From the NCBI RefSeq assembly GCF_000007145.1, contig NC_003902.1, positions 4,586,497 to 4,618,496 of the forward strand: a stretch of 32,000 nucleotides of DNA. The letters run 5' to 3'. The stretch's first letter is position 1; each line of letters begins with the position of its first letter. Made by a program: the position numbers and the translations under genes. The notes below the pieces were generated by a model. The model saw nothing but the letters and a program-made list of their open reading frames with translations, had not been told where the DNA came from and did no database searches. The stretch comes from Xanthomonas campestris pv. campestris str. ATCC 33913 (GTDB lineage: Bacteria > Pseudomonadota > Gammaproteobacteria > Xanthomonadales > Xanthomonadaceae). Of the stretch, positions 7,001 through 29,068 are shown in pieces.

Positions 7001-8066
7001 AGTCGAAGGCTTCGATATTCACGGCCAGGCGTGCGAACTTCTGCTCGATGCCGAACAGGCCCAGATCGCGGCGCACATCCTCGAAGCGATATTGCTGGTG
7101 CCGCAGTGCACTCCTGACCACGGAGGCCACCTGCGCGAACAGTGCATGCACCGGCTGCTGCGGGTCCATCTTCAGACGCAGCGAAATGACATTGGCCACC
7201 AACCCGGCGGCCTGCCGGTAGCGTGCATTGATCCGGCCAGTCACCGGCATGGCCAGCACCAGGTCTTCTGCGCCGGTGCAGCGGTAGTAATACGTGGCAA
7301 TCAGCGCAATCAACATCTGCGGCAGGCTGGCACCGTAGTGCTTGCCCAGCGCCCGCAGCTGCACCACCTGCTGCGGGGAGAATTCCCCGGTGCCACGCAA
7401 CAACCCGGTGGACAGCTGGTTGCCCGGGCGCGCCAGGGTCGTCGGCGGTGGCAGGTCGGCCAGCTGCTCCATCCAGTAATTGCGATCACGCTGAAAGCGA
7501 TCAGAGTCGCGGTACTGCTGCTCCAGCTCGATCAACGACAGCGCGCTGCCGTACTCGGCAGGTGCCGGCTCGCACCCGGTGGCGTAGGCGGTATACAACA
7601 CCGCCATGCGCTGCATCATGATCGAAGCGCAATAGCCGTCCATCACCAGATGGCTCACACATTGCACCCACATGTGATGGTCTTCACCCAGACGGAAGAC
7701 TGCACATCGCCACAACGGCCCGTTCTGCAGATCCTCCGGCTTGCGGATCTCCTCTTCCACCCAATGCTCGGCCGCATTCCGTGGCGCAGGATCGTCGCTG
7801 AAGTTGAAATAATGGATCGGCGCGGTGTATTCGGGCATCACCACCTGGCTGGGCACGCCGTCGTGCTCGACGATGCATAGCCGCAGCGTGTCGAACTCGC
7901 GCGTGAGCTGCAGGCTGGCACGGAGCAACACTTCAGGATCGAGCGGGCCGAACAACTCCAATGCTTCGGACAACATCAAGGTGTTGTCGGTATGCAACTT
8001 ACTGGCCACCCACAGCCCGCGCTGCGCTCTGGTCAGGGGATGTGTCGGGGAAGAGTCAGCGTGCAT
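4086..8066 (-). CDS. Single-module nonribosomal peptide synthetase, domain order C-A-T(PCP)-TE
   Basis: The gene is 1326 aa from ATG 8066, with AAGGAA about 9 nt upstream; the ORF-track start at 8120 adds 18 aa with no RBS. The C-domain motif is SHLVMDG (His codon 7650-7652). A-domain cores are LYTSGSTGVPKGV (6231-6266), LYGPTETT, GELYIGGAGVAKGY, YRTGDRV, GRADGQLKIRGHRVEPAEIE and NGKLDRRAL. The carrier motif is FFELGGDSLRA (Ser codon 5100-5102). The thioesterase motif is GWSLGG (Ser codon 4701-4703). Confidence 0.92.
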   Translation of the reverse strand: MHADSSPTHPLTRAQRGLWVASKLHTDNTLMLSEALELFGPLDPEVLLRASLQLTREFDTLRLCIVEHDGVPSQVVMPEYTAPIHYFNFSDDPAPRNAAEHWVEEEIRKPEDLQNGPLWRCAVFRLGEDHHMWVQCVSHLVMDGYCASIMMQRMAVLYTAYATGCEPAPAEYGSALSLIELEQQYRDSDRFQRDRNYWMEQLADLPPPTTLARPGNQLSTGLLRGTGEFSPQQVVQLRALGKHYGASLPQMLIALIATYYYRCTGAEDLVLAMPVTGRINARYRQAAGLVANVISLRLKMDPQQPVHALFAQVASVVRSALRHQQYRFEDVRRDLGLFGIEQKFARLAVNIEAFDYVLRFGEAYAVPHNLCNGPADDLTIFCYERGDGAALRFDLDANPALYDSEELAEHCRRLTHLADAVLADPECALGQVDVLGDAERQRLLHTWNATAAPLPEPSTLLHGMLQRAELMPAAVVVQYDNRTLDYATLCELAARIAAQWVDDGVRPGDVVAIALPRSEQLLVALLAVMWSGAAYLPLDPESPAARNRQMLNDSGAIALVCEPALCERYLLGGMVWLDPRPAVLPAAIAPLAQPDGTAYVLYTSGSTGVPKGVEVSHRNLANFLHAMEQELALRPRDRVLAVTTITFDIAGLELYLPLLTGARVVIAPAGITHDPRSLSRLIANEQISVVQATPSLWRILLANQELALDRVHALVGGEALVPELAAQLLSRVGRLTQLYGPTETTIWSTIMPLQLSDAAAPPIGRPLLNTRVYVLDAQRQPLPTGAVGELYIGGAGVAKGYRGKRQLTSERFVHDPFADDGSTMYRTGDRVRQRRDGLLEFIGRADGQLKIRGHRVEPAEIENALLLHTQVAQAVVVGHHDGANALQLLAYVVGKHGTAPSTELLRAHLQQRLPASMIPTLWMPLQALPLTANGKLDRRALPAPGAVPQRAHLAPRDALEQQLAAMLQDVLGIAVVGVDDNFFELGGDSLRAAEMAARFPQLFGVELPLGTLFHAPTIAGLAEVVRRSTHTPNDPLGVLLPLRAGTAGVTPLFCIHPVVGLGWSYLTLLGQLDPQWPVYALQSPGLSDPLHRPDSIEAIARDYLARLRAVQPHGPYRLMGWSLGGLIAHAITAELHALGEEVEVLAMLDSYPHRQQAAALPESEGVRASVHALNLNLAHGQPMPTTVAELASLLCDHYGLMSLPAVRQLLDQRPTLLDDLGAVTQHHLHLARRYQPRALAQDVLFVEASVRMTSGGDDALWVDYRPQAWRPYVRTLQLHTLDSDHHSMLSPAHSATLSTLLHAATSKTARTDGCITTASDGVAEYA

Positions 8067-8953
8067 TGATGTGCGTTCCTTGTTGTTGGCGTGCAGTGAT
8101 CCAGCGCGTTCCCACCGCATTGCAGCATCAGGATGCAGGCGAGACCTTGCTGCCTTGTAAGATCATGGGGGTGAGCAACACCATCGATCACCGACATCTT
8201 CCGGCAATACGCGATGGAAACGCACAATGGAGACGCACACGAACGCGACGCACAGTCGACTGAATTGCAGTTGACTGTTAAAAGCCCCTTGCGTCGATAC
8301 AAGTTAATAAACACTAACAATCTGTGCACGCAATAAACCGTGCAAAAATCACGGTTTTCGCGTCGTGCGCAAATATTTTTACCGAAGCGTGATTTGAACT
8401 AGTGTTATTGATGCATAGGTCGCGCGCGCGCACTTCGCGATCGCAGCTGCCGCAGAAGCGCCTGATAAAGGCTGCATTCGTGCACTCAAGCCTCCACGCA
8501 TACTCGGAGTCTTCATCCATCGCAACGCATCGGATGGAGGCTCGAGTAAGACCACTTTGCGTAACGCTATTGGTATAACTGCGCCGCAGAGCGAATCACT
8601 TACCGAAATCGGACGGGCTCCAGAGAGCGGCGAACGTTTTAGCAAGCATGGCGTGTCCTCGCACGATCATCTGACAGTCGCCGAACTGTCATCGGCGGGT
8701 AGCAACCTTCGGGAACAACGCGCAGCGATTGCCTACGCCTTCTCGGCACACGCATGCGGCCAATGGCAGGCCTTACGCACAAGAAAGTGCGGCGTTGGTC
8801 ACTCTAATCGGTCGATGCGCATCGCGCGTGGCGCGGGCGTGTGAATGCATTACCCGGCTTGGAGAAGGCTGACAAGTGCACCCTGCTCCGTGGCAGGCAT
8901 GCGCACACACCACCCCCACTGCGCTGCGGCACTTGCCGCAGCGCAGCTGCCCA

Positions 8954-10840
8954 TCAGCCCAACGGCTCGTCGGACAGATAGGTGTAGCCGGTCAGGCCGG
9001 CTTCCAGGGCGTCGTGCAATTCCTGCGCGCGCTCGGGCGGCAACTGCGCCGCGGCGATACGTTCGGCATAGGTAGCACGCAGGGTGTCCAGCTGATAGCC
9101 CACGTAGTCGAGCATCACATCGGTGGTGTCGCCGCGACGCTGCTGCGCGATGCGGTAGCCGGTGCCGTCCACCGCCACTTCCACCGCATCGGTATCGCCG
9201 AACAGGTTATGGATGTCGCCCAGGATTTCCTGGTAGGCACCCACCAGGAAGAAGCCAATGCGATAGCTCTCGCCGGGGTTCAAGCCATGCAATGGCAGCG
9301 AGCTGTCCAGGCTTTCGTTCTCGACGTAGGTCTTGACCATGCCGTCGGAATCGCAGGTCATGTCGGCGATGATGCCGCGCCGCTGCGGCGCCTCGTTCAG
9401 GCGCTCGATCGGCACGATCGGGAACACCTGATCGATTGCCCACACATCCGGAATCGATTCGAACACGCTGAAGTTGACGAAGTACTTGTCCACCAGCCGC
9501 TCGTTGAGCTCGTCCAGCACCGGGCGATGGCTCTTTTCGTCGAAACTCAGGCGCGCACGCACGCCGTGGGCGATGGCGTAGAACAGGTCATCGATGCGCG
9601 CACGGTGGGTCAGGTCGATCTGGCCCAGCGCGTAGGCACTCAGCCCTTCGGCATGGAAGTGCTGCGCTTCCTGGAACAGTTCCACCGCCGGGCGCACATC
9701 GAGCTCGTCGTGGATCTCGCGCAGGTGACGGATCGCCGCCGGCTCGTCGTCGTGCGCATCCGGCACGCGGCCTTCCGGCGCCTGCTCCACTTCCGAGACG
9801 TTGGCGATCAACACTGCGTGGTGCGCGGTCATCGCGCGGCCGCATTCGGTGACGATGCGCGGCGGTGGCAGGCCGTGCTCTTCGCAGGCACTGGCCAGCG
9901 GCTGCACGATGTTGCTGGCGTACGAATGCAGGCCGTAATTGATCGAGCAATAGCTGCGCGAACGCGTGCCTTCGTAGTCGATGCCCAAGCCGCCGCCGAC
10001 ATCCACATGGCTGATCTTCGCGCCCAGGCGCGAGAGTTCCACGAAATACCGGGTGGCCTCGCGCATGCCGTTGGCGATGTCGCGCACGTTGGAAATCTGC
10101 GAGCCCATATGGAAATGCAGCAGGTTCAGGCTATCGGCGTATTCGGTGTCGCGCAGCGACTTCCACAGGTCCAGCACCTGGCGCGGCGACAGCCCGAACT
10201 TGGCCTTGTCGCCACCGCTGTTCTGCCACTTGCCCGCGCCCAGCGACGCCAGCCGCATGCGCACGCCCAGGCCCGGCTTGACGTCCAGCGCGCGCGCCTC
10301 TTCCAGCACCAGGTTCAGCTCGGAGGGCTTTTCGATGACGATGAAGGTCTGCAGGCCGAGCTTGCGCCCGATCAGCGCCAGGCGGATGTACTCGCGATCC
10401 TTGTAGCCGTTGCAGACGATCAGCCCACCCGGACGCGACAGTGCCAGCACCGCCATCAGCTCGGGCTTGCTGCCCGCTTCCAGGCCGAAGCCCTCGCCGT
10501 GGTGGCTGGCCAGCGTGCCGGCCACGCCACGGTGCTGGTTGACCTTGATCGGGTACACCGCGGTGTAACCACCGGCGTAGTCCCAATCGGCCTGGGCCTG
10601 GGCGAACGCCGCCTGCAGCTTGCCCAGGCGCTGGCCCAGGATGTCCGGGAAGCGCACCAGCAGCGGCAGCTTGGCGCCGGCCGCACGCGCGGCATCCACC
10701 ACTTCGGGCAGCGACACCGCAGGGCCGTCGGCGGTCGGTCTGACCACCACATGGCCGGCGTCGTTCACATCGAAATACCCATCGGCCCAATGCGGGATCG
10801 AGTAGGTCTTGCGGGCTTGGTCGAGGGACCAATCGCTCAT
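8954..10840 (-). CDS. speA: Biosynthetic arginine decarboxylase
   Basis: The gene is 628 aa from ATG 10840 (MSDWSLDQARKTYSIPHWADGYFDVN, the typical SpeA N-terminus). PLP-dependent decarboxylase features run throughout (YPIKVNQ, LEAGSKPEL, HFHMGSQ, DVGGGLGIDYEG). The 57 extra residues of the ORF-track start (11011) cross the intergenic region. Confidence 0.95.
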   Translation of the reverse strand: MSDWSLDQARKTYSIPHWADGYFDVNDAGHVVVRPTADGPAVSLPEVVDAARAAGAKLPLLVRFPDILGQRLGKLQAAFAQAQADWDYAGGYTAVYPIKVNQHRGVAGTLASHHGEGFGLEAGSKPELMAVLALSRPGGLIVCNGYKDREYIRLALIGRKLGLQTFIVIEKPSELNLVLEEARALDVKPGLGVRMRLASLGAGKWQNSGGDKAKFGLSPRQVLDLWKSLRDTEYADSLNLLHFHMGSQISNVRDIANGMREATRYFVELSRLGAKISHVDVGGGLGIDYEGTRSRSYCSINYGLHSYASNIVQPLASACEEHGLPPPRIVTECGRAMTAHHAVLIANVSEVEQAPEGRVPDAHDDEPAAIRHLREIHDELDVRPAVELFQEAQHFHAEGLSAYALGQIDLTHRARIDDLFYAIAHGVRARLSFDEKSHRPVLDELNERLVDKYFVNFSVFESIPDVWAIDQVFPIVPIERLNEAPQRRGIIADMTCDSDGMVKTYVENESLDSSLPLHGLNPGESYRIGFFLVGAYQEILGDIHNLFGDTDAVEVAVDGTGYRIAQQRRGDTTDVMLDYVGYQLDTLRATYAERIAAAQLPPERAQELHDALEAGLTGYTYLSDEPLG

Positions 10841-10872
10841 TTCGTTGTCTCGGCTGGGGCAAAAGGGCGTGA

Positions 10873-10908
10873 ATTGTAACGCCTGGCATGCCGAGGGTCC
10901 GTTACAAT
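10873..10908. promoter_or_regulatory. Perfect 9-bp inverted repeat in the speA/speE divergent promoter region
   Basis: ATTGTAACG (10873-10881) and CGTTACAAT (10900-10908) are separated by 18 nt. Each arm reads TACAAT (a near-consensus -10 hexamer) toward its own gene. It may be an operator, a promoter pair or an RNA hairpin; these cannot be told apart from sequence. Confidence 0.4.
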
Positions 10909-10915
10909 CCGCGCC

Positions 10916-11066
10916 GATCTGACGCCCTGTTCCCGATGGAAACGGGGCTGACGAGGGCTCGGACCTGGCCGTCAGCCGCATGGCTGCACCAGGCTGCGCC
11001 CCGACCCTCACCTGGCGCCGTGCGCCACCTTCTCCCGCCGGGAGCAGGAACAGCCCGTTTCTTTTC
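10916..11066 (+). promoter_or_regulatory. Candidate structured 5' leader / attenuator of speE
   Basis: Hairpin 10924-10948 is GCCCTGTTCC-CGAT-GGAAACGGGGC, 10 bp with one bulge. Its 3' arm (10939-10950, GAAACGGGGCTG) can instead pair with 11051-11061 (CAGCCCGTTTC), which is followed by TTTCTTTTCG. CTGACG occurs twice (10919, 10948) against a single CGTCAG (10970). These are mutually exclusive helices ending in a U-tract about 20 nt before the speE RBS. Confidence 0.35.
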
Positions 11067-11081
11067 GATTAGGACGTCCGC

Positions 11082-11939
11082 ATGAGCACCAACGACAACT
11101 GGTACATCGAACACTTCCAGCCCACCGGCTCGGCCATCGGCTACCGCATCAGCGGCAAGCTGGACGAGGTGCAGTCTCCGTTCCAGAAGATCGAGATCTA
11201 CCAGACCACCGATTGGGGCAAGCTGATGATCATCGACGGCGCGGTGATGCTCACCAGCCGCGACAACTTCTTCTATCACGAGATGATCAGCCACCCGGCG
11301 CTGTTCACCCATGCCGCACCCAAGCGCGTGGTGATCATCGGTGGCGGCGACTGCGGCACGCTGCGCGAGGTGCTCAAGCACCCCGGCGTGGAAAGCGCCA
11401 CCCAGTGCGACATCGACGAGCAGGTCACCCGCATGTCGGAGAAGTACTTCCCCGAACTGTGCGATTCCAATGACGATGCGCGCGCCGAGCTGCTGTTCGA
11501 CGACGGCGTGGCCTACATGGCCAATTGCCCGGCCGGCAGCGTGGATATCGTGATCGTGGATTCCACCGACCCGGTGGGCCCGGCCGAAGGCCTGTTCAAC
11601 AAGTCCTTCTACGAGAGCTGCTTCAAGGCACTCAAGGACGACGGCATCCTGGTGCAGCAATCCGAATCGCCGCTGGCGCTGCTGGACCTGATCAAGGAAA
11701 TGCGCACGGAAATGGGCAAGGCCGGCTTCCAGTCGTTCAAGACCCTGCCGTTCCCGCAGCCGTGCTACCCCACCGGCTGGTGGAGCGTGACCATGGCCAG
11801 CAAGCAGGCCAACGCGGATTTCGCCTTCCGCCAGGCCGACGCGCAGGCCAAGGGCTTCGACACGCTGTACTACACCGCGCACCTGCACACCGGCGTGCTG
11901 GTGGCACCGCCGTTTGTGGCCAAGGCGCTGGGCGAGTAA
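11082..11939 (+). CDS. speE: Spermidine synthase (polyamine aminopropyltransferase)
   Basis: This 285-aa protein contains YHEM..H, VVIIGGGDCGTLREVLKH, QCDIDE, DSTDPVGPAEGLF and the full SpeE architecture. Confidence 0.95.
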   Translation: MSTNDNWYIEHFQPTGSAIGYRISGKLDEVQSPFQKIEIYQTTDWGKLMIIDGAVMLTSRDNFFYHEMISHPALFTHAAPKRVVIIGGGDCGTLREVLKHPGVESATQCDIDEQVTRMSEKYFPELCDSNDDARAELLFDDGVAYMANCPAGSVDIVIVDSTDPVGPAEGLFNKSFYESCFKALKDDGILVQQSESPLALLDLIKEMRTEMGKAGFQSFKTLPFPQPCYPTGWWSVTMASKQANADFAFRQADAQAKGFDTLYYTAHLHTGVLVAPPFVAKALGE

Positions 11940-22618: not shown

Positions 22619-23266
22619 ATGACCTCCATCGCCCTGCCATCCCACGACGCGCCGCCGTCACGCAAGCCGGCGATTTCACGCGAGGACCTGATCGCCGCGG
22701 CGTTGTCATTGATTGGCCCGCACCGCAGCCTGTCCACGCTGAGCCTGCGCGAAGTGGCCCGTGAGGCCGGCATCGCGCCGAACAGCTTCTACCGCCAGTT
22801 CCGCGACATGGACGAGCTCGCCGTGGCGCTGATCGATCTGGCCGGGCGCTCGCTGCGCACCATCATCGGCCAGGCACGGCGGCGGGCGACCTCCACCGAC
22901 CGCAGCGTGATCCGGGTGTCGGTGGAAACCTTCATGGAACAGCTGCGCGCCGACGACAAGCTGCTGCATGTGCTGCTGCGCGAGGGTGCGGTGGGCTCGG
23001 ATGCCTTCAAGCAGGCGGTGGAACGCGAGCTCAGCTATTTCGAAGACGAGCTGCGCGTGGACCTGATCCGCCTGGCCGCTGCCGATGGCGCCACGCTGCA
23101 TGCGCCGGCGCTGGTCTCCAAGGCGATCACCCGGCTGGTGTTTGCGATGGGCGCCACGGCGATGGACCTGCCGCCGGAGAAAGATCCCGAGCTGGTCGAA
23201 CAGATCTCGCAGATGCTGCGCATGATCCTCACCGGCGCACGCACGCTGGGCTCGCACGGCCACTGA
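22619..23266 (+). CDS. TetR-family transcriptional regulator, FabR/DesT-like
   Basis: The 215-aa protein has an N-terminal HTH (LSLREVAREAGIAPNSFYRQFRDMDELAVAL) resembling FabR/DesT. It is divergent from the desaturase-reductase operon, as desT is from desCB in Pseudomonas aeruginosa. Confidence 0.85.
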   Translation: MTSIALPSHDAPPSRKPAISREDLIAAALSLIGPHRSLSTLSLREVAREAGIAPNSFYRQFRDMDELAVALIDLAGRSLRTIIGQARRRATSTDRSVIRVSVETFMEQLRADDKLLHVLLREGAVGSDAFKQAVERELSYFEDELRVDLIRLAAADGATLHAPALVSKAITRLVFAMGATAMDLPPEKDPELVEQISQMLRMILTGARTLGSHGH

Positions 23267-23629: not shown

Positions 23630-24301
23630 TTGCCGCTGCCCATGCCTGCGCACCGCATCCCTTCTGCGCCCACCACTCCATTGGCCAAACCGGTGGACAC
23701 CGTGCCCAGCGGCACCTTGACCGCGCTGCGAGCGCAGGCACAGGACTGCCGTCGCTGCGATCTCTGGAAGCCGGCCACTCAGGTTGTATTTGGCGCCGGC
23801 CCTGCCCGCGCGCCGTTGATGATCATTGGCGAACAGCCCGGGGACCAGGAAGACCAGCAGGGCCGCCCGTTCGTGGGCCCGGCCGGCCAGTTGCTGGGCA
23901 CGCTGATGGCCGACGCGGGCCTGGATCCGGCGATGGCCTACGTCACCAACACGGTCAAGCATTTCAAGTTCGTCCCGCGCGGCAAACGCCGGCTGCATCA
24001 GCGCGCCACTGCCGGCGAACAGGCCGCGTGCCGGCCATGGTTGGCCGCCGAACTGTTGCGGGTACGCCCACGCATTGTGCTGGCGCTGGGCGCGATGGCG
24101 GCGCAAACCCTGTTCGGTAACGCGTTTCGATTGACCACCGAACGCGGGCAATGGCGCGCGCTGGATGGCCGCACCACTGCGCTGGCAAGCTGGCACCCGT
24201 CCGCCATCCTGCGCATGCGTGAGCCCGATCGCACCGCCACGCGCGCGCTGCTGCGAGAGGATCTGGCCCAGGTCGCGGCCGCACTGGATAACCTCCGATG
24301 A
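23630..24301 (+). CDS. Family-4-related uracil-DNA glycosylase superfamily protein of the UdgX type
   Basis: The 223-aa protein has motif A GEQPG (23828-23842) rather than GE(A/G)PG. It has VKHFKF followed by an insertion carrying KRRLH (23984-23998), and motif B WHPSAILR. Fe-S Cys contexts are CRRCDL and ACRPW. It is co-linear with M. smegmatis UdgX as recalled (GEQPG ... VKHFKF...GGKRRIH ... HPSSLLR). Confidence 0.82.
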   Translation: MPLPMPAHRIPSAPTTPLAKPVDTVPSGTLTALRAQAQDCRRCDLWKPATQVVFGAGPARAPLMIIGEQPGDQEDQQGRPFVGPAGQLLGTLMADAGLDPAMAYVTNTVKHFKFVPRGKRRLHQRATAGEQAACRPWLAAELLRVRPRIVLALGAMAAQTLFGNAFRLTTERGQWRALDGRTTALASWHPSAILRMREPDRTATRALLREDLAQVAAALDNLR

Positions 24302-24310
24302 TGCCCGGAG

Positions 24311-24333
24311 ATAATCGGCTCGATTATTTTTTT
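24311..24333 (+). terminator. Candidate intrinsic terminator of the UdgX-like gene
   Basis: ATAATCG-GCT-CGATTAT forms a 7-bp AT-rich stem followed by seven T residues. It starts 10 nt after the stop codon. Confidence 0.5.
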
Positions 24334-24344
24334 GCATAAAGTCC

Positions 24345-24602
24345 TTGCACAATAAAAACAACACGGGTAATGTTCGCGCCCTCGGCAGGTACGTCCTGCA
24401 CTTTTTGGATTCCCGCGCAGATGACCATTCATCTCCCCAGCAAACAGGACCGACTGCAACGCGCCAACCGCGTTCCGCAGACGCGTGTCGCCGTGCTGGC
24501 AGCGCGGATGCACACCTTCGATTGATCTTCAGCCACAGGAGATCGGTCACCCGATCTCCGAGGCTTGCGAACGCCCTCGGATGCTGCATCCGGGGGTTTT
24601 TT
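24345..24602 (+). ncRNA. Candidate small RNA or small-protein transcript bounded by a promoter-like element and a strong terminator
   Basis: A promoter-like element reads TTGCAC (24345-24350), N17, TAATGT (24368-24373). Internal hairpins are GCAGG-TACGT-CCTGC (about 24387-24401) and GGAGATCGG-TCAC-CCGATCTCC (24538-24559). The terminal terminator is at 24574-24602. A 34-codon ORF (24421-24525, MTIHLPSKQDRLQRANRVPQTRVAVLAARMHTFD) has no clear RBS. I matched no known RNA family by eye. Confidence 0.35.
24574..24602 (+). terminator. Strong intrinsic terminator
   Basis: CCCTCGGATG-CTG-CATCCGGGGG forms a 10-bp stem (one G-U pair) followed by TTTTTT. Confidence 0.85.
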
Positions 24603-24650
24603 CGTTATGCGTTCGCTCAACAGGTTCGTGCGGCTGATCGCCAAAGACAC

Positions 24651-24884
24651 CCGGGCAGGGAACGCCCGGCAACACGGAAGTTGCAGTGCTGCGAGGCGCG
24701 CAAGCGCTGTGCCCAGGTGTCGGGCACGGGCGGCAGACGATCATGCGTACACATGGATTATCGTTCCTAAAGAACGGTAATCAGAAACGATGCAGAACGG
24801 TTTCCAGCGGTCTGGAGTTTATTCCAGCTGGTGTGCGCGGCGTGCCGTGGCATATACCGGAAACCCCGATGCAGTTTCTGACAC
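24651..24884 (+). ncRNA. Hairpin-dense non-coding leader preceding the tRNA-like elements
   Basis: The hairpins are CCGGGC-AGGGAAC-GCCCGG (24651-24669), GCGC-GCAA-GCGC (24696-24707), GTGCCC-AGGTGTC-GGGCAC (24709-24727) and GATTATCGTTC-CTAAA-GAACGGTAATC (24756-24782). A long-range pair is formed by AGAAAC (24783-24788) with GTTTCT (24874-79). It encloses GGTTTCC (24799-24805) paired with GGAAACC (24859-24865), and CTGGA-GTTTAT-TCCAG (24812-24827). No plausible ORF is present. Confidence 0.3.
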
Positions 24885-24953
24885 CGGATGTCGGCTCCTG
24901 GTAGGAGCGGTGGCGTCAGCCACAGGGTCGGTTCGATTCCGGCACATCCACCA
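24885..24953 (+). ncRNA. tRNA-like element 1 (acceptor, D-arm, T-arm, ACCA end; anticodon loop replaced by a tetraloop)
   Basis: The acceptor is GGATGT (24886-91) paired with ACATCC (24944-49), followed by A and CCA. The D-arm is GCTC-CTGGTAG-GAGC. The T-arm is GTCGG-TTCGATT-CCGGC. The central arm is GTGGC-GTCA-GCCAC (4-nt loop), with a 3-nt variable region. The total is about 68 nt, so it cannot present a normal anticodon. Confidence 0.55.
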
Positions 24954-25023
24954 CTGGATAGCTCAGTTGGGTAGAGCAGCGGATTCACCTCCGTGAGTCG
25001 CGGGTTCGAATCCCGCTCCACCA
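24954..25023 (+). ncRNA. tRNA-like element 2 (canonical D- and T-arms, CCA end; 6-nt central loop and only a 4-bp acceptor)
   Basis: The D-arm is TA-GCTC-AGTTGGGTA-GAGC and the T-arm is GCGGG-TTCGAAT-CCCGC. The central arm is GCGGA-TTCACC-TCCGT (6-nt loop). The 3' strand TCCACCA pairs with the 5' strand only over TGGA/TCCA. It starts directly after the CCA of element 1. The body resembles a tRNA-Phe-type scaffold (GGATAGCTCAGT.GGTAGAGCAG.GGATT). Confidence 0.55.
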
Positions 25024-25381
25024 TGACCTTTCACGTCATGCACCACGGGACGCATGTCCCAACTCCAGGAAACGCCCTTGCCTGGTGTAAGCGCACACCC
25101 GTGCGCGGCCACCAGACAGCGGCGCTGTCGCCGGGCCTGTGGCCTGACGCTGCCTTCCCTGCAGTGCGCCTGGCTGTGCGGTTCGCCGTGTTGGTCATGC
25201 GCGGTGCGGCGGCAGCGCCAGCCCACCGTGCTCCGCCACCGCGCTGTCACGGGCGTTTCCTTCTTTTTCTTGCTTGCGCCGCGTTGCATCGGCAATGGCT
25301 TCGTCCCGGTTCCGATCCGGGGAACGAGGCGTGCGTGTGTGCCCGGATCGGATCACCAGAGCCAACCCAAGGAGACATGCC

Positions 25382-26503
25382 ATGTTCTGGACCAAGAAGG
25401 TCGTGATCGGTGACGGCGACCGCGGCCTGGTGTATCGCGACCGGCGCTTTGCGCGCCTGCTCATGCCCGGCGTTTATCGCCTGTTCGACCCGTTGCATCG
25501 CCTGACCATCACGCTGCATGCGGTGGGCAATGGCGCCCCGGTAGGGGCCGAGGCCGAGCGGCTGATCGAGGCGCTGGGCCCGCAGCTGGAGACGCACTGC
25601 GTGCTCGCCGACATCGGTGCGCACCAGGTCGGCCTGCTGCTGCGCAACGGCGTCCTCGACGGCGTACTGCCGCCGGGTTCGCGCACGCTGTACTGGCGTG
25701 GGGCCACCCCCGTGTCCGTGCAGGTGCTGCCGCTCAGCGATGGGCTGCAGGTGCCAACGGATGTGCAGCGCCGGCTGCGCCAGCTCGGCACACTGTCGAA
25801 GGTGGCGAGCTGCGTTGAGGTGCCGGCCGATTCGGTCGGCCTGGTCTCGGTGGATGGCACGCTCGCACCACCGCTGCCACCCGGGGCGTATGCGTTCTGG
25901 AATTTCCAGAACACCGTGGTGACCGAAGTGGTCGACCTGCGCGTGCAATCGGTCGAAGTCTCCGGCCAGGAGCTGCTGACCCGCGACAAGGTGTCGTTGC
26001 GGGTCAACCTGGCTGCCAGCATGCGCATCACCGATGCGGTGGCCATGCGCACCCGCGTGGCCAAGGCCGGTGATTTGCTGTATCGCGAACTGCAATACGG
26101 GCTGCGCCGTGCGGTGGCCAGCAAGACGCTGGACGAGTTGCTGGGCGACAAGGCATCGCTGGACGCCGACATCGTGGCGCATGTGCGTAGCAGCGTGCAC
26201 GGCTTCGGCATCGAAGTGCTGGGCGTGGGCGTCAAGGACGTGATCCTGCCCGGCGAGATGCGCGCCATCCTCAATGCCGTGGTGCAGGCAGAGAAGCAGG
26301 CGCAAGCCAATGTGATCCGCCGGCGCGAAGAAGCCAATGCCACGCGTTCACTGCTCAACACTGCAAAGTTGATCGAGGAAAGCAGCGTGCTGATGCGGTT
26401 GAAGGAACTGGAGGCCTTGGAAAAGGTCACCGAAAAGATCGACACGCTCACCGTGTTCGGCGGCCTGGATGGCGTGCTGAAGCAGCTGGTGACGCTGCGC
26501 TGA
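25382..26503 (+). CDS. SPFH/band-7 (stomatin/slipin-like) domain protein with an uncharacterised ~170-aa N-terminal region
   Basis: The gene is 373 aa from ATG 25382, with AAGGAG 7 nt upstream. The SPFH core reads VSGQELLTRDKVSLRVNLAASMRI ... FGIEVLGVGVKDVILPGEMRAILNAVVQAEKQAQANVIRRREE and is followed by a coiled-coil tail. I see no obvious N-terminal transmembrane helix. Confidence 0.85.
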   Translation: MFWTKKVVIGDGDRGLVYRDRRFARLLMPGVYRLFDPLHRLTITLHAVGNGAPVGAEAERLIEALGPQLETHCVLADIGAHQVGLLLRNGVLDGVLPPGSRTLYWRGATPVSVQVLPLSDGLQVPTDVQRRLRQLGTLSKVASCVEVPADSVGLVSVDGTLAPPLPPGAYAFWNFQNTVVTEVVDLRVQSVEVSGQELLTRDKVSLRVNLAASMRITDAVAMRTRVAKAGDLLYRELQYGLRRAVASKTLDELLGDKASLDADIVAHVRSSVHGFGIEVLGVGVKDVILPGEMRAILNAVVQAEKQAQANVIRRREEANATRSLLNTAKLIEESSVLMRLKELEALEKVTEKIDTLTVFGGLDGVLKQLVTLR

Positions 26504-26560
26504 TGATCGTCGTGTGCGGTGGACGGATCCGCCGCGCACGGCCCCAAAGGAATGAGAACA

Positions 26561-27781
26561 ATGAACACACACACCTACGAATTTCTGCATGCCGATGGCA
26601 CCTCCACGCCGATCAAGGGCTGGGTGCGCGGCGTACCGCTGGAAGAACAGGCGCTTGCACAGCTGCGCAACATCGCCGCCGTACCCTTTGTCGGGCCGTG
26701 GGTGGCGGTGATGCCCGACGTGCACCTGGGCAAGGGCGCAACCGTGGGCTCGGTGATCCCGACCCGCGGCGCCATCATCCCGGCTGCGGTCGGGGTGGAC
26801 ATCGGCTGTGGCATGGCCGCAGTGCGCACCACGCTGCGTGCCAAGGATCTGCCCGACAACCTGGCCCAGCTGCGCTCCAGCATCGAGCGCAGCGTGCCGG
26901 TGGGCAATGGCCGTGGTGGCGAACACCGTAACCTTCCGGACAGCATCGCCACGCGCATTGCACAGTCCGGGCTGGTGCAGCGCCTGGAGGCGATCAAGCA
27001 GACCCATCGGCGCATCCGTACCGACAAGCTGGAGTGCCAGATCGGCACGTTGGGCGGTGGCAATCACTTCATCGAGATCTGCCTGGACGAAACCGATGCG
27101 GTCTGGGTGATGCTGCACAGCGGCTCGCGTGGCACCGGCAACCTGATCGGCACCTATTTCATCGAGCGGGCGCGTGAGCAGCTGGCCAACCGCGTGCTGG
27201 GCTTTCATTTGCCCGACAAGGACCTCGCATTCTTCATGCAAGGCGAGCCGTTGTTCGATGAGTACGTGGAAGCGGTGTCGTGGGCGCAGGATTACGCCCG
27301 CGAAAACCGCGAGGCGATGATGGCGCGGGTATTGGCGGAAATGCGCCACCGCCTGCCGAAGTTCCAGCTGGAAAAGCTGGCGGTGAACTGTCACCACAAC
27401 TACGTGCAGAAGGAAACGCACGGCGGCGAGGAACTGTTGATCACCCGCAAGGGCGCAGTCAGTGCGCGCACCGGCGAGCTGGGCATCATTCCCGGCAGCA
27501 TGGGTACGCGTAGCTACATCGTGCGCGGGCTCGGCAACGCGGAGAGCTTCCACAGCTGCAGCCATGGTGCGGGCCGGGTCATGAGCCGGACCGCCGCGCG
27601 TCAGCAGATCACGCTGGCGCAGCACCGCGAAGCAACTGCGCATGTGGAATGCCGCAAGGATGCGGCGGTCATCGACGAATCGCCGGCGGCGTACAAGTCG
27701 ATCGACGCCGTGATGGCCGCGCAGCAGGATCTGGTGGAAGTGCTGCACACACTGCGCCAGGTGGTGTGCATCAAGGGGTGA
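26561..27781 (+). CDS. rtcB: RNA 3'-phosphate/2',3'-cyclic phosphate--5'-OH ligase RtcB
   Basis: The gene is 406 aa from ATG 26561, with AAAGGAA about 9 nt upstream. It contains MPDVHLGKGATVGSVIP, DIGCGM, GGGNHFIE, MLHSGSRGTGN, IPGSMGT, SCSHGAGR and the C-terminal HTLRQVVCIKG. It is co-linear with E. coli RtcB and lies 57 nt downstream of the SPFH gene. Confidence 0.95.
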   Translation: MNTHTYEFLHADGTSTPIKGWVRGVPLEEQALAQLRNIAAVPFVGPWVAVMPDVHLGKGATVGSVIPTRGAIIPAAVGVDIGCGMAAVRTTLRAKDLPDNLAQLRSSIERSVPVGNGRGGEHRNLPDSIATRIAQSGLVQRLEAIKQTHRRIRTDKLECQIGTLGGGNHFIEICLDETDAVWVMLHSGSRGTGNLIGTYFIERAREQLANRVLGFHLPDKDLAFFMQGEPLFDEYVEAVSWAQDYARENREAMMARVLAEMRHRLPKFQLEKLAVNCHHNYVQKETHGGEELLITRKGAVSARTGELGIIPGSMGTRSYIVRGLGNAESFHSCSHGAGRVMSRTAARQQITLAQHREATAHVECRKDAAVIDESPAAYKSIDAVMAAQQDLVEVLHTLRQVVCIKG

Positions 27782-27981: not shown

Positions 27982-28779
27982 ATGCACAGCTACGACAAGC
28001 AGGAACGCAAGGCAGAAGCGCAAGATCTCAACCGCGACCCGATCTCCGGCACGCCCGGCTCCCATCCGGTGGGCGTGGGCGTGGGCGGCATTGCCGGTGG
28101 TGCGGCCGCAGGCGCGCTGGCGGGCACGGTGTTTGGCCCGCTGGGCACGCTGATCGGCGCCGCAGCAGGTGTGGTGGCTGGCGCTGCCGCCGGCAAGGGC
28201 GTCGCCGAACGGCTAGACCCCACGGTGGAAACCGAATACTGGCGCCAGGAGCATCGCAACCGCCCTTACTACAAGGAAGGCACCGACTACGATCGCGACT
28301 ACGCCACCGTTTACGGATTCGGCCTGCAGGCGCGCGAAACCCGCCCCACCAGCACCTGGGAAGAGACCGAAGCCACGCTGGCAGGCGAATGGCCGCGCAA
28401 CCGCGGTGAATCGCGTCTGGAGTGGGACGAAGCCCGTTTGGCCTCGCGTGATGCCTGGGACCGTGCGGATCGCACTCACACCGTGTATCGCGACAACGAC
28501 ACCCACTACCAGAGCCGCTTCGACAGCGTGGGTTACCGCGAAGCCGATTACTCCTACGATGACTATCGCCCTGCGTACCGCTATGGCATGCAGGCGCGCC
28601 AGCAACACGCCGGCCGCCAATGGGATGACCATCTGGAACGCGACCTGGGCGACGGCTGGGACCGCTTCAAGGCGGATTCGCGCCTGAGCTGGGAAAAAGC
28701 CAAGCATGCCGTGCGCGAGGCCTTCGACTCGGATCGTCACGACGGCTCGGTGCGGCACACCGATGACACCCGTCTCTAA
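27982..28779 (+). CDS. Hypothetical protein: glycine-zipper segment followed by an internally duplicated W/Y/D/R-rich region
   Basis: The gene is 265 aa from ATG 27982, with GGAGG 4 nt upstream. The Gly-zipper is GVGVGGIAGGAAAGALAGTVFGPLGTLIGAAAGVVAGAAAGKG. Two rounds of paired motifs follow: (YWRQEHRNRPYY..DYATVYGFGLQARE / YDDYRPAYRYGMQARQ) and (TWEETEATLAGEW..LEWDEARLASRDAWDR / QWDDHLERDLGDGWDRF..LSWEKAKHAVREAFD). Confidence 0.8.
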   Translation: MHSYDKQERKAEAQDLNRDPISGTPGSHPVGVGVGGIAGGAAAGALAGTVFGPLGTLIGAAAGVVAGAAAGKGVAERLDPTVETEYWRQEHRNRPYYKEGTDYDRDYATVYGFGLQARETRPTSTWEETEATLAGEWPRNRGESRLEWDEARLASRDAWDRADRTHTVYRDNDTHYQSRFDSVGYREADYSYDDYRPAYRYGMQARQQHAGRQWDDHLERDLGDGWDRFKADSRLSWEKAKHAVREAFDSDRHDGSVRHTDDTRL

Positions 28780-28859: not shown

Positions 28860-29068
28860 AAGTCTTGCGAGCCTGTCTTGCTGCGCGGCAACGCGCGTGT
28901 TTTGACCCGCCTCGGCAAGTGCAGCTTAGAGCGGCTAACAAAACGTAGCGAGCAGTCGTCAGGTGGGTGCGCACGGCGCGGAGGAACCGGAATGTACGTG
29001 GGTACATGCCGATTCCGAGCACCGGCCGCGCCCGCCTGACGGCTGCGCAGTCGTTTTGATAGCTGCTC

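Follow-up and report, generated by a model that had tools for sequence, protein, structure and literature searches.

In Xanthomonas campestris pv. campestris ATCC 33913, two tRNA-shaped elements lie upstream of a gene for an SPFH/Band-7 protein and of the gene for the RNA ligase RtcB, and this arrangement raises the questions of what kind of RNA these elements are, with which protein they work, and what purpose they could serve. The window analysed here is a stretch of 32,000 nucleotides of this genome (NC_003902.1, positions 4,586,497 to 4,618,496), and its sequence is identical in X. campestris pv. campestris 8004. An earlier note, made from the sequence alone, described the two elements, their loops of 4 nt and 6 nt, and their place ahead of the SPFH and rtcB genes, and all of its sequence-level statements hold in the window sequence. 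The distance to the SPFH gene, given there as about 360 nt, is 359 nt from the end of element 2 to the ATG at 25382, on the same strand. The two elements and two genes are listed below, with positions numbered within the window.

24886-24953, + strand: element 1, a tRNA-like module (minimum free energy cloverleaf, covariation, score with model R1)
24955-25020, + strand: element 2, the main tRNA-like module, of b7a type (Rfam tRNA, ARAGORN, homologues, covariation)
25382-26503, + strand: SPFH/Band-7 ("slipin family") protein, 373 aa (Pfam Band_7, 9.1e-30)
26519-27781, + strand: open reading frame for the RtcB RNA ligase, directly following the SPFH gene (Pfam RtcB, 3.6e-124)

In public gene calls of identical genomes (L161-L165), the start of rtcB is placed at about 26552 or 26561.

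Structure and conservation of the two tRNA-like elements

In the window sequence, element 1 consists of a 6-bp acceptor (GGATGT 24886-24891 with ACATCC 24944-24949), a D-arm (24893-24908) whose loop carries GG, a 5-bp hairpin at the position of the anticodon arm (GTGGC-GTCA-GCCAC, 24910-24923) that is capped by the tetraloop GTCA (24915-24918), and a T-arm (GTCGG-TTCGATT-CCGGC, 24927-24943; GGTTCGATTCC), and A-CCA (24950-24953) directly follows the acceptor. A single base, C24954, separates this CCA from the start of element 2, the two elements being arranged head-to-tail. Element 2 has an acceptor of 4 bp (TGGA 24955-24958 with TCCA 25017-25020), a canonical D-arm (GCTC-AGTTGGGTA-GAGC, 24961-24977), an anticodon arm with a 5-bp stem and the 6-nt loop TTCACC at 24984-24989 (GCGGA-TTCACC-TCCGT, 24979-24994), and a likewise canonical T-arm (GCGGG-TTCGAAT-CCCGC, 25000-25016). 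The encoded CCA reported earlier is present after both elements; however, the CCA that follows element 2 (25021-25023) runs into the stem of the hairpin after it (CATGAC, 25022-25027), and its position is not fixed in relatives, 9 of 76 copies having it where a canonical tRNA does. The acceptor is 4-6 bp long in 59 of these copies.

The minimum free energy fold of element 1 is a cloverleaf (-31.8 kcal/mol, z -3.3), and 0 of 200 shuffled sequences folded as well. For element 2 folded in isolation the cloverleaf was not obtained (z -1.8) and, because energy-based folding alone fails to give this structure, its cloverleaf is argued from covariation. Among 76 distinct copies aligned with MAFFT, 97.1% of the cells are paired in comparison to 72.6% in shuffled alignments (0/500), the slid controls give 33-46%, and double changes are seen in 16 of the 19 pairs. 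For element 1, 89% of the cells are paired among 21 homologues as against 72% after shuffling (0/500), both sides have changed in 15 of 20 pairs, and compensatory changes are seen even within Xanthomonas. As MAFFT misaligns the short anticodon arm of element 1 (66.7% paired), this helix rests mainly on inspection of the individual sequences; its cap is commonly a GNRA tetraloop in relatives. The (A)CCAC linker between the two elements is also kept in relatives.

The earlier note expected ARAGORN to make either a pseudogene call or no call; element 1 is indeed not called, and element 2 alone is called, as a tRNA-??? with a 2-base anticodon. In the scan with Rfam tRNA, tmRNA and YrlA models which that note had suggested, only element 2 passes, on the tRNA model (RF00005, 44.9 bits, E 1.3e-6, gathering score 29). 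No gathering threshold was reached in the Rfam search with element 1, the best match being to tRNA-Sec (23.4 bits, E 0.06), and a tmRNA was rejected since the RF00023 match (26.4 bits versus 47) aligns only the T-arm and acceptor and skips 328 model positions, and ARAGORN finds no tmRNA. A canonical decoding tRNA was rejected as well, in view of the loops of 4 and 6 nt, the acceptors of 6 and 4 bp, and an anticodon that varies among orthologues. The description of the elements as non-decoding mimics thus stands, with variable triplets and loop lengths, truncated acceptors and an unconserved CCA.

Distribution of the tRNA-like RNA and its association with the SPFH gene

Model R1 was built from element 2 and scores element 1 at 26.8 bits (E 1e-4). 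Of 80 SPFH loci from several phyla and distant lineages that have enough upstream sequence, 77 carry a homologue detected by this model (55-91 bits), on the same strand as SPFH and 150-900 nt before its start. The full tRNA-like module was not found in three SPFH loci (L035, L073 and L160), nor in the E. coli island, where PGAP leaves the corresponding position without annotation. The relatives also supply the conservation and covariation which the earlier note had asked for, and they agree with its view that the elements are too well formed for decay.

The identity of the partner is a different matter. The earlier note had linked the RNA to the RtcB repair pathway. Among 57 metagenome loci anchored on SPFH, only 25 have RtcB encoded no more than 1.5 kb downstream, although the RNA is nearly always present, and in the loci in which the SPFH gene is located downstream of rtcB (viz. 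L014, L015, L022 and L032) the RNA stays beside the SPFH gene. This gene order indicates that the tRNA-like RNA tracks the SPFH gene rather than rtcB, and the partner to which the genomic evidence points is the SPFH protein. The linkage to SPFH, the structures and the conservation of these structures are all direct observations. In loci lacking RtcB, the genes after SPFH are heterogeneous (AAA ATPase, TPR, amidohydrolase, MFS, and a weak ATP-grasp match), and no single alternative partner emerged among them.

The unusual loops had been stressed in the earlier note, but of 79 element 2 homologues 65 have a 7-nt loop and 14 a loop of 4-6 or 8 nt. As judged from these sequences, the abnormal loop lengths are a trait of some lineages, including Xanthomonas, and most members of the family have canonical 7-nt loops. 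The family shows three architectures, of which the abutting pair is one. In 62 seven-nt loops of the tRNA-like module there are 25 different triplets, while U33 is retained in 49 and A37 in 55 of them, and ARAGORN calls many of the homologues as tRNAs bearing ordinary anticodons. Among Xanthomonas species the loop of element 2 is 5-7 nt long, with both its triplet and its length varying between species, and this loop is partly degenerate, as is that of the following hairpin. Due to this degeneracy, any role depending upon the loops is weakened for the X. campestris genome.

The tRNA-like pair as the 5' part of a longer structured leader

Comparison of the sequences upstream of SPFH indicates that a conserved and covarying RNA of approximately 550 nt (about 24828-25375) has the tRNA-like pair in its 5' part. 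Its other parts are as follows.

24828-24860, + strand: 5' hairpin, the "P0" box, consensus GGTGCGCGCGGC-nnT-GCCGTGGCGTATGCC, about 25 nt before element 1
25022-25040, + strand: free-standing anticodon-stem-loop mimic CATGAC-CTTTCAC-GTCATG (minimum free energy hairpin; 7-nt loop at 25028-25034)
25047-25060, + strand: hairpin GGGAC-GCAT-GTCCC, with a GNRA tetraloop (GCAA or GAAA) in relatives
25066-25260, + strand: large domain with an 11-12-bp long-range closing helix and internal helices (RNAalifold, 20 leaders)
25261-25276, + strand: pyrimidine-rich tract TTCTTTTTCTTGCTTG, directly 3' of the long-range helix and also C/U-rich in relatives
25312-25375, + strand: 3' hairpin, then the conserved ACCAGAGCC-AACCC, and the Shine-Dalgarno sequence AAGGAGA (25369-25375)

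The close subgroup and four further species of Xanthomonas keep the P0 box, and replacements in its inverted repeat, such as GGC/GCC by GAC/GTC and G.T by A-T or C-G, leave the pairing intact. RNAalifold pairs the box, which by itself folds with -17.5 kcal/mol and a z of only -1.3. A promoter was considered for this box and rejected, as the spacing of its hexamers fits neither sigma-70 nor sigma-54 and the compensatory changes favour a hairpin; the box may be an RNA structure or a DNA site.

By automatic picking, 41 of 76 copies have a stem of 4-7 bp and a loop of 7 nt after the main tRNA-like module, and in these 41 loops (automatic picks, a few replaced by hand) C32 is present in 38, U33 in 37 and A37 in 40, while positions 34-36 hold 16 different triplets; five of the six pairs of the stem have changed on both sides. 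Further downstream, the hairpin at 25047-25060 has 97% of its cells paired and double changes in 3 of 5 pairs. The strands of the long-range helix (CAGGAAACGCCC, 25066-25077, with GGGCGTTTCC, 25251-25260) are paired in 95.4% of the cells, with both-side changes in 10 of 11 pairs, and those of the 3' hairpin (CCGATCCGGG, 25312-25321, with CCCGGATCGG, 25342-25351) in 93.7%, with double changes in 4 of 5 pairs. When the helices downstream of the tRNA-like modules are pooled, 92.7% of the cells are paired in comparison to 82% after shuffling, and 22 of 27 pairs have changed on both sides.

The pyrimidine-rich tract contains UCCUU, complementary to AAGGA of the Shine-Dalgarno sequence, and it may be an attenuator or an anti-Shine-Dalgarno element; the terminator-like match near it is weak, and there is no clear intrinsic terminator. 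A scan for sigma-70 promoters found none, and the sole match to the sigma-54 pattern, TGGCAGCGCGGATGCA at 24497, lies a long way upstream and is probably not related. With Rfam at permissive thresholds, the interval 24300-25500 gives only sub-threshold matches to the tRNA clan and YrlA, and thus no other known RNA is present there.

Relationship to b7a-tRNA and other known systems

An RNA of this kind had been predicted earlier. [quoted passage not shown] At the present locus, a Band_7 gene begins 359 nt downstream on the same strand and is followed by the RtcB open reading frame, element 2 scores above the RF00005 threshold and element 1 forms a cloverleaf below it, and both have homologues among the tRNA-like genes that precede other Band-7 genes. 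We found no conflict with b7a-tRNA as it is described second-hand in the preprint, and on that description the two elements are the X. campestris representative of b7a-tRNA. The suggestion that they form a distinct class of tRNA mimic was therefore anticipated by the 2016 prediction, to the extent that the preprint relates it. The b7a-tRNA family has no entry in Rfam 15, and our literature search for later work on it yielded nothing past the 2018 preprint and a survey (PMC13086221). The present analysis adds to the prediction, as the preprint gives it, the linkage with SPFH, the three architectures, the free triplet flanked by U33 and A37, the free hairpin and the leader of about 550 nt.

Two other systems invite comparison. 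The operons of the RtcR/CARF type share with this locus an RtcB operon logic centred on broken tRNA anticodon loops; in them, however, the sensor is the protein RtcR, which has tRNA halves as its ligand and turns on a sigma-54 promoter (PMC7790460; PMC10159003), whereas the Xanthomonas locus lacks RtcR, RtcA and a clear sigma-54 promoter and carries instead a cis-encoded tRNA mimic upstream of its genes. The vault resembles it in that a protein of SPFH fold, bearing N-terminal beta repeats and a long helix, has a small structured RNA of its own, but vault RNAs are not tRNA mimics of the kind seen in Xanthomonas. The rat vault protein (4v60_A) is matched by Foldseek with E 1.2e-5 over 434 aligned columns, only at rank 37, and the model-based resemblance may serve as a lead.

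The SPFH protein and its gene neighbourhood

The SPFH protein has at least 6903 relatives, named slipin. No transmembrane segment is predicted in it (maximum hydropathy 1.26), and its structural model, which is of moderate confidence (pLDDT 73.5), has N-terminal beta repeats, the SPFH domain and a long helix. The matches of this model in Foldseek include HflK/C, stomatin, QmcA, prohibitin and flotillin, with the vault protein MVP at rank 37, and the protein is thus predicted to be soluble and to share its fold with SPFH proteins that form cages.

Among the large open reading frames of the 32-kb window there is no TROVE/Rsr, RtcA or RtcR, and no sigma-54 activator is found in the window. The 265-aa gene located 3' of rtcB is syntenic in Xanthomonas, belongs to no family and has only a weak SlyB-like match; it was considered as a part of the system and rejected. 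The PADLOC defence models gave no meaningful match to SPFH, RtcB or this gene, and a phage collection searched with the SPFH protein gave no match.

Proposed function and alternative explanations

The reading which we consider probable is that the RNA is a b7a-tRNA, that it extends over about 550 nt and that it works as a partner of SPFH or as a bait, all of these jointly. We infer that the RNA would be transcribed together with the SPFH and rtcB genes, that it would bind SPFH and form a subunit of an SPFH assembly, as YrlA or Y RNA does for Rsr or Ro60 in the alternative rsr-rtcB operons, and that it would present both tRNA elbows and anticodon-loop look-alikes. Since these are the parts displayed, the particle is proposed to engage proteins recognising tRNAs, such as the repair ligase, enzymes of tRNA processing or modification and anticodon nucleases, and it could then help, as an adapter or a bait, to repair tRNA damaged by nucleases. 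A role as a pure scaffold leaves unexplained that the geometry of the anticodon loop is kept while the triplet is free. This triplet changes even between near-identical copies.

It is also conceivable, but in our estimate quite unlikely, that all of the following holds together: a multi-domain RNA family of more than 500 nt that is dedicated to soluble SPFH proteins, loops that are bait for anticodon nucleases, and hence a sensor or decoy of tRNA attack which consists of RNA and is encoded in cis. The bait would then be offered by one loop in the tRNA body and another in the free hairpin, with Y32, U33 and A37 kept; the nucleases may be toxins of the colicin E5/D, PrrC, VapC or zymocin type; and the choice of the toxin that is sensed or absorbed may depend on the triplet, while the SPFH repair operon would be switched when the RNA is cleaved or is re-ligated by RtcB.

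Of the rival explanations we give most weight to a cis-acting sensor leader, although we regard it as unlikely. By this explanation, anticodon nucleases would cut the tRNA-like modules and loop mimics, and the cleavage, or re-ligation by RtcB, would refold the long-range helix, the pyrimidine-rich tract and the Shine-Dalgarno hairpin, altering read-through or translation so that a putative refolding switches SPFH-rtcB on or off. The unbroken covarying structure from the tRNA-like modules to the Shine-Dalgarno sequence suits a cis-regulatory leader equally well, the complementarity of UCCUU to AAGGA directly after the closing helix is consistent with it, and the anticodon-loop signature is kept with the triplets free. 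Known targets of such nucleases are GUC, GUA and GUU (colicin E5), ACG (colicin D) and UUC (zymocin-type toxins), and many triplets of the free hairpin match them. The leader would replace the RtcR/CARF sensor, which is absent from the Xanthomonas operon as is any sigma-54 activator from the window, and operons of the RtcR type do sense damaged tRNA (PMC7790460). However, the pyrimidine-rich tract is no clear intrinsic terminator, the loops are degenerate in Xanthomonas, and in some relatives (L015, L055 and E. coli) promoters of sigma-54 type lie upstream of the RNA, and hence an RNA sensor is unneeded there. Moreover, a sensor of this kind is compatible with a trans-acting partner of SPFH and does not exclude it.

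A role limited to processing or stability is improbable. The use of tRNA-like structures as punctuation is an established principle, and here they would be recognised by RNase P and RNase Z and would define or protect the 5' end of the SPFH-rtcB mRNA. The 6-bp acceptor of element 1 followed by A-CCA and the conserved (A)CCAC linker would fit this, and the YrlA of M. smegmatis is cut by RNase P (PMC4201824). However, the acceptor of element 2, with only 4 bp, would make a poor RNase P substrate by the argument of the same study, and punctuation leaves the conserved anticodon-loop mimic, the second module and the covarying downstream domain of about 300 nt unexplained.

It is highly improbable that the locus encodes a permuted Y RNA of the YrlA type, formed from the T-arm of element 1, an AUCCA-CCAC-UGGAU hairpin and the D-arm of element 2, with Rsr/Ro60 encoded elsewhere. 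A weak RF02553 match (21.8 bits, E 0.08) does cover 24927-24977 with precisely this permuted arrangement, and the 5-bp hairpin can be drawn from the window sequence. This score is nevertheless far below the gathering threshold of 69, which true YrlA genes in the SPFH-less RtcB loci of our sample exceed (70-78 bits, same strand, equivalent position); there is no rsr (Ro60/TROVE) among the large open reading frames of the window, and the GNCGAAN0-1G motif (PMC4201824) is absent from the + strand of 24600-25400. The hairpin itself was rejected as unconserved, being lost in relatives with differing acceptors (L089, L083, L094 and L099), and covariation supports the two cloverleaves instead. The analogy to YrlA without membership in its family, as drawn earlier, is therefore apt: both are non-decoding RNAs adjacent to rtcB which carry the elbow of D- and T-arm and accompany a scaffold protein (PMC4201824; 10.1101/312249), but YrlA is circularly permuted (T-arm, acceptor hairpin, D-arm), has a Ro-binding helix and no anticodon-loop mimic, and belongs to rsr-yrlBA-rtcBA operons, whereas the Xanthomonas elements are ordinary 5'-to-3' cloverleaves with anticodon arms at a locus without Rsr.

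Finally, that these are pseudo-tRNAs decaying after an integration event, or unusual tRNAs that decode, has next to no probability despite the Rfam score of element 2 and the ordinary anticodons called in homologues, as the position relative to SPFH is kept across distant lineages, all helices are maintained by compensatory changes, the "anticodon" varies among orthologous loci and even among Xanthomonas species, the acceptors are truncated, the CCA is not conserved and no integrase is nearby; the comparative sequence data refute the integration scar offered as an alternative in the earlier note.

Returning to the RNA as a partner of SPFH, the b7a-tRNA as related in the preprint has been a prediction since 2016, outside Rfam and unannotated in genomes, and X. 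campestris pv. campestris 8004, a genetically tractable plant pathogen, offers a compact case in which this RNA, a soluble SPFH protein and RtcB occur together. The anatomy described here gives concrete mutations and probes, viz. in the elbow modules, the mimic with the free triplet, the long-range helix and the link to SPFH. If the RNA were a bait or sensor, it would add a new mechanism by which cells perceive an attack on tRNA; if only its scaffold role were true, the theme of Ro/Y RNA and the vault, in which a cage or ring protein is combined with a small RNA, would be extended to SPFH proteins. As a separate observation, the 2026 survey records an SPFH gene inside the rtc locus of P. aeruginosa (PMC13086221).

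The tandem tRNA-like elements

Upstream of the SPFH (Band-7) and RtcB genes lie two tRNA-like folds, element 1 (24886-24953) and element 2 (24955-25020), and a re-reading of the sequence bore out the earlier note in describing 24886-25023 as two tRNA-shaped folds with odd loops. The parts of this RNA and the genes following it are listed below.

Features of the RNA and its downstream genes in the window
24828-24860, + strand: conserved box, probably a hairpin, preceding element 1
24886-25023, + strand: tandem tRNA-like stretch, both elements including CCA, read from the sequence
25022-25040, + strand: predicted anticodon-stem-loop mimic CATGAC-CTTTCAC-GTCATG, hairpin directly 3' of element 2
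25047-25060, + strand: hairpin, GNRA type in relatives, first part of a large downstream domain
25066-25077 with 25251-25260, + strand: long-range helix of 11-12 bp, both-side changes in 10 of 11 pairs
3' of the start of the 25066 helix and before 25312, + strand: further inner helices, then a pyrimidine tract (downstream domain)
25312-25351, + strand: hairpin just 5' of the Shine-Dalgarno sequence (downstream domain)
25382-26503, + strand: SPFH/Band-7 protein, 373 aa, gene downstream of the elements
26519-27781, + strand: RtcB, gene downstream of SPFH

In element 1, a 6-bp acceptor (GGATGT with ACATCC) and a D-arm with GG in its loop are accompanied by a 5-bp 'anticodon' hairpin capped by GTCA and a canonical T-arm (GTCGG-TTCGATT-CCGGC), next to which is A-CCA. 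Element 2 starts one base past this CCA and has a 4-bp acceptor (TGGA with TCCA), a D-arm of textbook form (GCTC-AGTTGGGTA-GAGC), a 5-bp anticodon stem with a 6-nt loop (TTCACC) and the T-arm GCGGG-TTCGAAT-CCCGC; the CCA found 3' of it lies within the stem of the next hairpin. In keeping with the pseudo or missing calls that had been expected, ARAGORN called element 2 alone, as tRNA-??? with a two-base anticodon. With the Rfam tRNA model element 2 scored 44.9 bits against a gathering score of 29, whereas element 1 remained below every Rfam threshold; its minimum-energy fold is a cloverleaf (z = -3.3).

Conservation and genomic linkage

Comparison loci were sampled by means of RtcB (80 loci) and of SPFH protein alignment (80 loci). 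The SPFH gene is present in only 12 of the 80 RtcB-sampled loci, and where present it has the tRNA-like gene upstream on the same strand; in four loci (L014, L015, L022 and L032) SPFH is downstream of rtcB, and the tRNA-like gene is still upstream of SPFH. With a covariance model based on 17 copies of element 2 (R1), 77 of 80 loci having at least 600 nt of upstream sequence show a homologue at a distance of 150-900 nt before the SPFH start. Of 57 SPFH-anchored metagenome loci, 25 have an RtcB start no more than 1.5 kb downstream, the other neighbours being heterogeneous. Across the loci the RNA tracks SPFH, not RtcB. Over 7.1 kb the window matches Xanthomonas campestris pv. campestris 8004 (CP000050.1) without a difference.

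Covariation was measured on sequence-only MAFFT alignments, with shuffling (500 shuffles) and slid partners as controls. In 76 distinct copies of element 2, 97.1% of the cells are standard pairs versus 72.6% after shuffling (0/500 shuffles reach 97.1%) and 33-46% with slid partners, and 16 of the 19 pairs show changes on both sides. For element 1 (21 copies), the corresponding values are 89% versus 72% shuffled, with both-side changes in 15 of 20 pairs. Within Xanthomonas both elements are retained with compensatory changes (viz. GGATGT/ACATCC to GGGTA/TACCC and GCTCC/GGAGC to GCTCG/CGAGC). The tandem elements are more than chance or decay, and because both are kept with compensatory changes, the alternative that they are pseudo-tRNAs left by an old integration event is ruled out.

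The loops and acceptors agree with the claim that these elements cannot decode. Of 79 element 2 homologues, 65 have a 7-nt loop and 14 a loop of 4, 5, 6 or 8 nt; in five Xanthomonas species the loop measures 6, 6, 7, 7 and 5 nt, with unrelated sequences and unchanged stems. In tRNA numbering, 62 seven-nt loops keep Y32, U33 (49/62), A37 (55/62) and A38 (49/62) around 25 different triplets. The acceptor (n=76) is 4 bp in 19 copies, including that in the window, 5 bp in 14, 6 bp in 26 and 7-8 bp in only 10; CCA is at the canonical position in 9/76. Judged from these sequences, the element 2 family is predicted not to decode.

Wider anatomy of the RNA

Of the 76 distinct copies, 32 carry a second T-arm module directly upstream (the window type), 21 a smaller module 30-50 nt downstream (a GGTA(A/G)AG D-loop-like segment, a GNRA hairpin and a T-arm) and 23, by a strict criterion, no second module. 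In relatives, a GNRA or other short loop usually closes the 'anticodon' arm of element 1, so that this module mimics the tRNA elbow but lacks an anticodon loop. Further, in 41/76 copies a 4-7-bp stem with a 7-nt loop was picked automatically 3' of the main element. The stems of this hairpin covary, and the 41 loops (automatic picks, a few swapped by hand) have C32 in 38, U33 in 37 and A37 in 40, with 16 different triplets; A37 is missing in X. vesicatoria and X. axonopodis. Many of these loops match the anticodon loops of real E. coli tRNAs, viz. CUGUCAC (Asp), CUUUCAC (Glu), CUUCCAA (Gly), CUGUAAA (Tyr), CUGUUAA (Asn) and CUACGAA (Arg).

The whole conserved RNA is ~550 nt in length, and a second subgroup of metagenome loci (L107-L117, L123) has >600 nt of conserved structure, in which otherwise near-identical copies differ in loop triplets. 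Their stems are invariant, ACGGT/ACCGT in the tRNA-like anticodon arm and CCAGT/ACTGG in the following hairpin. The triplets (CGT, GAT, GAA, GGT and CGG in one loop; GAA, TGA, ACG, GTA and GCA in the other) differ in nearly each copy, a localised hypervariability.

Class membership and possible working

The window RNA adjoins a Band-7 gene in an RtcB context, resembles tRNA and is homologous to other Band-7-linked elements, and it very probably belongs to the predicted class of Band-7-associated tRNA-like RNAs (b7a-tRNA). In the Discussion of Wang et al. (bioRxiv 10.1101/312249, 2018), which cites Burroughs and Aravind 2016 as its source, such an RNA is described as strongly akin to authentic tRNA, probably redundant with YrlA and without validation. 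This is a direct precedent, and the elements as first noted are a rediscovery of a predicted class. A literature search found no later experimental work on this RNA, and the class is absent from Rfam and unannotated. What may be new is the extended anatomy: a second module, a free-standing anticodon-loop mimic whose triplet is free, the ~550-nt covarying leader and an association with SPFH instead of RtcB.

In the SPFH protein no transmembrane segment was found. Its model (pLDDT 73.5) has N-terminal beta repeats, an SPFH domain and a long helix. Among solved structures, it is closest in fold to the cage-forming HflK/C, stomatin, QmcA, prohibitin, erlin and flotillin, and matches major vault protein less well (434 aligned columns). 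Under the name 'slipin family protein', the family counts at least 6903 members at E <= 1e-20.

What is directly observed is the structures with their conservation, and the SPFH linkage. The explanation we favour, with some reserve, is that this RNA would be to an SPFH assembly what YrlA is to Rsr, its RNA subunit. It would be transcribed together with SPFH-rtcB, since strand, distance and the continuous conservation up to the Shine-Dalgarno sequence point to this. By offering tRNA elbows and imitations of anticodon loops to proteins that recognise tRNAs, it could act as an adapter or a bait when tRNA damaged by nucleases is repaired. A loop-dependent role in Xanthomonas itself is probably limited, because the element 2 loop varies from 5 to 7 nt and the hairpin has lost A37 in two species. 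The main rival, rather unlikely and compatible with the favoured explanation, is that the leader itself is the sensor, loop cleavage or re-ligation refolding the downstream domain and switching expression. That the RNA serves only as RNase P punctuation is improbable, as it leaves the loop mimic and the large domain unexplained. Its interpretation as YrlA has very little in its favour: it scores 21.8 bits with RF02553 (threshold 69) whereas true YrlA genes in SPFH-less RtcB loci of our sample score 70-78, and neither the GNCGAAN0-1G motif (+ strand, 24600-25400) nor rsr (large ORFs of the window) was found. Least credible of all is the pseudo-tRNA reading. For the specialist, the existence of this RNA is no surprise; the locus makes what repair modules sense testable in a tractable organism.

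Surroundings and other genomes

As the earlier note stated for Rsr/Ro, no Rsr/TROVE gene is found among the large ORFs of the window, and none for RtcA or RtcR. Downstream of rtcB, a 265-aa ORF (27982-28779, +), syntenic in all Xanthomonas loci examined, belongs to no Pfam or NCBIfam family, its sole match being a weak one of SlyB-like (glycine-zipper lipoprotein) type. The Xanthomonas sRNA sX9 (RF02228) is matched over its full length (92.5 bits, E 8e-16) at 28933-29007 (-), about 1.1 kb past rtcB and in the opposite orientation. Between a UDG-family gene (~23642-24301) and the tRNA-like RNA, a candidate small transcription unit (24497-24597, +) comprises a sigma-54-like TGGCAGCGCGGATGCA (24497) and two hairpins, 24539-24559 and 24573-24597, the latter being strong, terminator-like and furnished with a T-run. 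Two Stenotrophomonas loci, L001 and L075, also have the motif CACCTTCGATT upstream of the RNA. A palindrome ATCGTTCCTAAAGAACGGTAAT (24760-24781, +) and hairpins at 24709-24727 and 24812-24827, conserved in five Xanthomonas species, look operator-like; a syntenic TetR-family gene (22619-23266) lies just upstream.

Sigma-54-type motifs CGGCACAAGCATTGCT (L015, ~6455-6475) and TGGCACATCCCTTGT (L055, ~1437-1452) precede the tRNA-like RNA in some gammaproteobacterial loci, unlike the Xanthomonas-type loci, where no such promoter was evident. An island located between yjbD and lysC occurs in about 1425 of the 5426 complete E. coli genomes (e.g. L170 3466-3995, STEC639; L171, WAT). Its intergenic region of 530 nt contains a sigma-54-type promoter (TGGCACGCTTCTCGCA), a single T-arm (TGGGTTCGATTCCCA) and a hairpin whose loop is 7 nt; slipin and nucleotidyltransferase genes come next, and a zeta-toxin-family gene is encoded on the opposite strand. 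The region has no annotated RNA, and only its T-arm is detected by R1; this could be a relative of the same RNA in reduced form, perhaps RtcR-controlled. Several metagenome-assembled genomes or contigs (L026 706-3966; L137 4-941; L144 1-1292; L126, L141, L118 and L148) have an array of ~10-27 tRNA genes immediately 5' of an RtcB or b7a-SPFH cassette and in the same orientation; tRNA arrays apparently move along with tRNA-repair modules. Unrelated to this RNA, the window also encodes a single-module NRPS (C-A-PCP-TE) adjoining a glycosyltransferase, then arginine decarboxylase and spermidine synthase (4086-8120, -, and 8954-11939).
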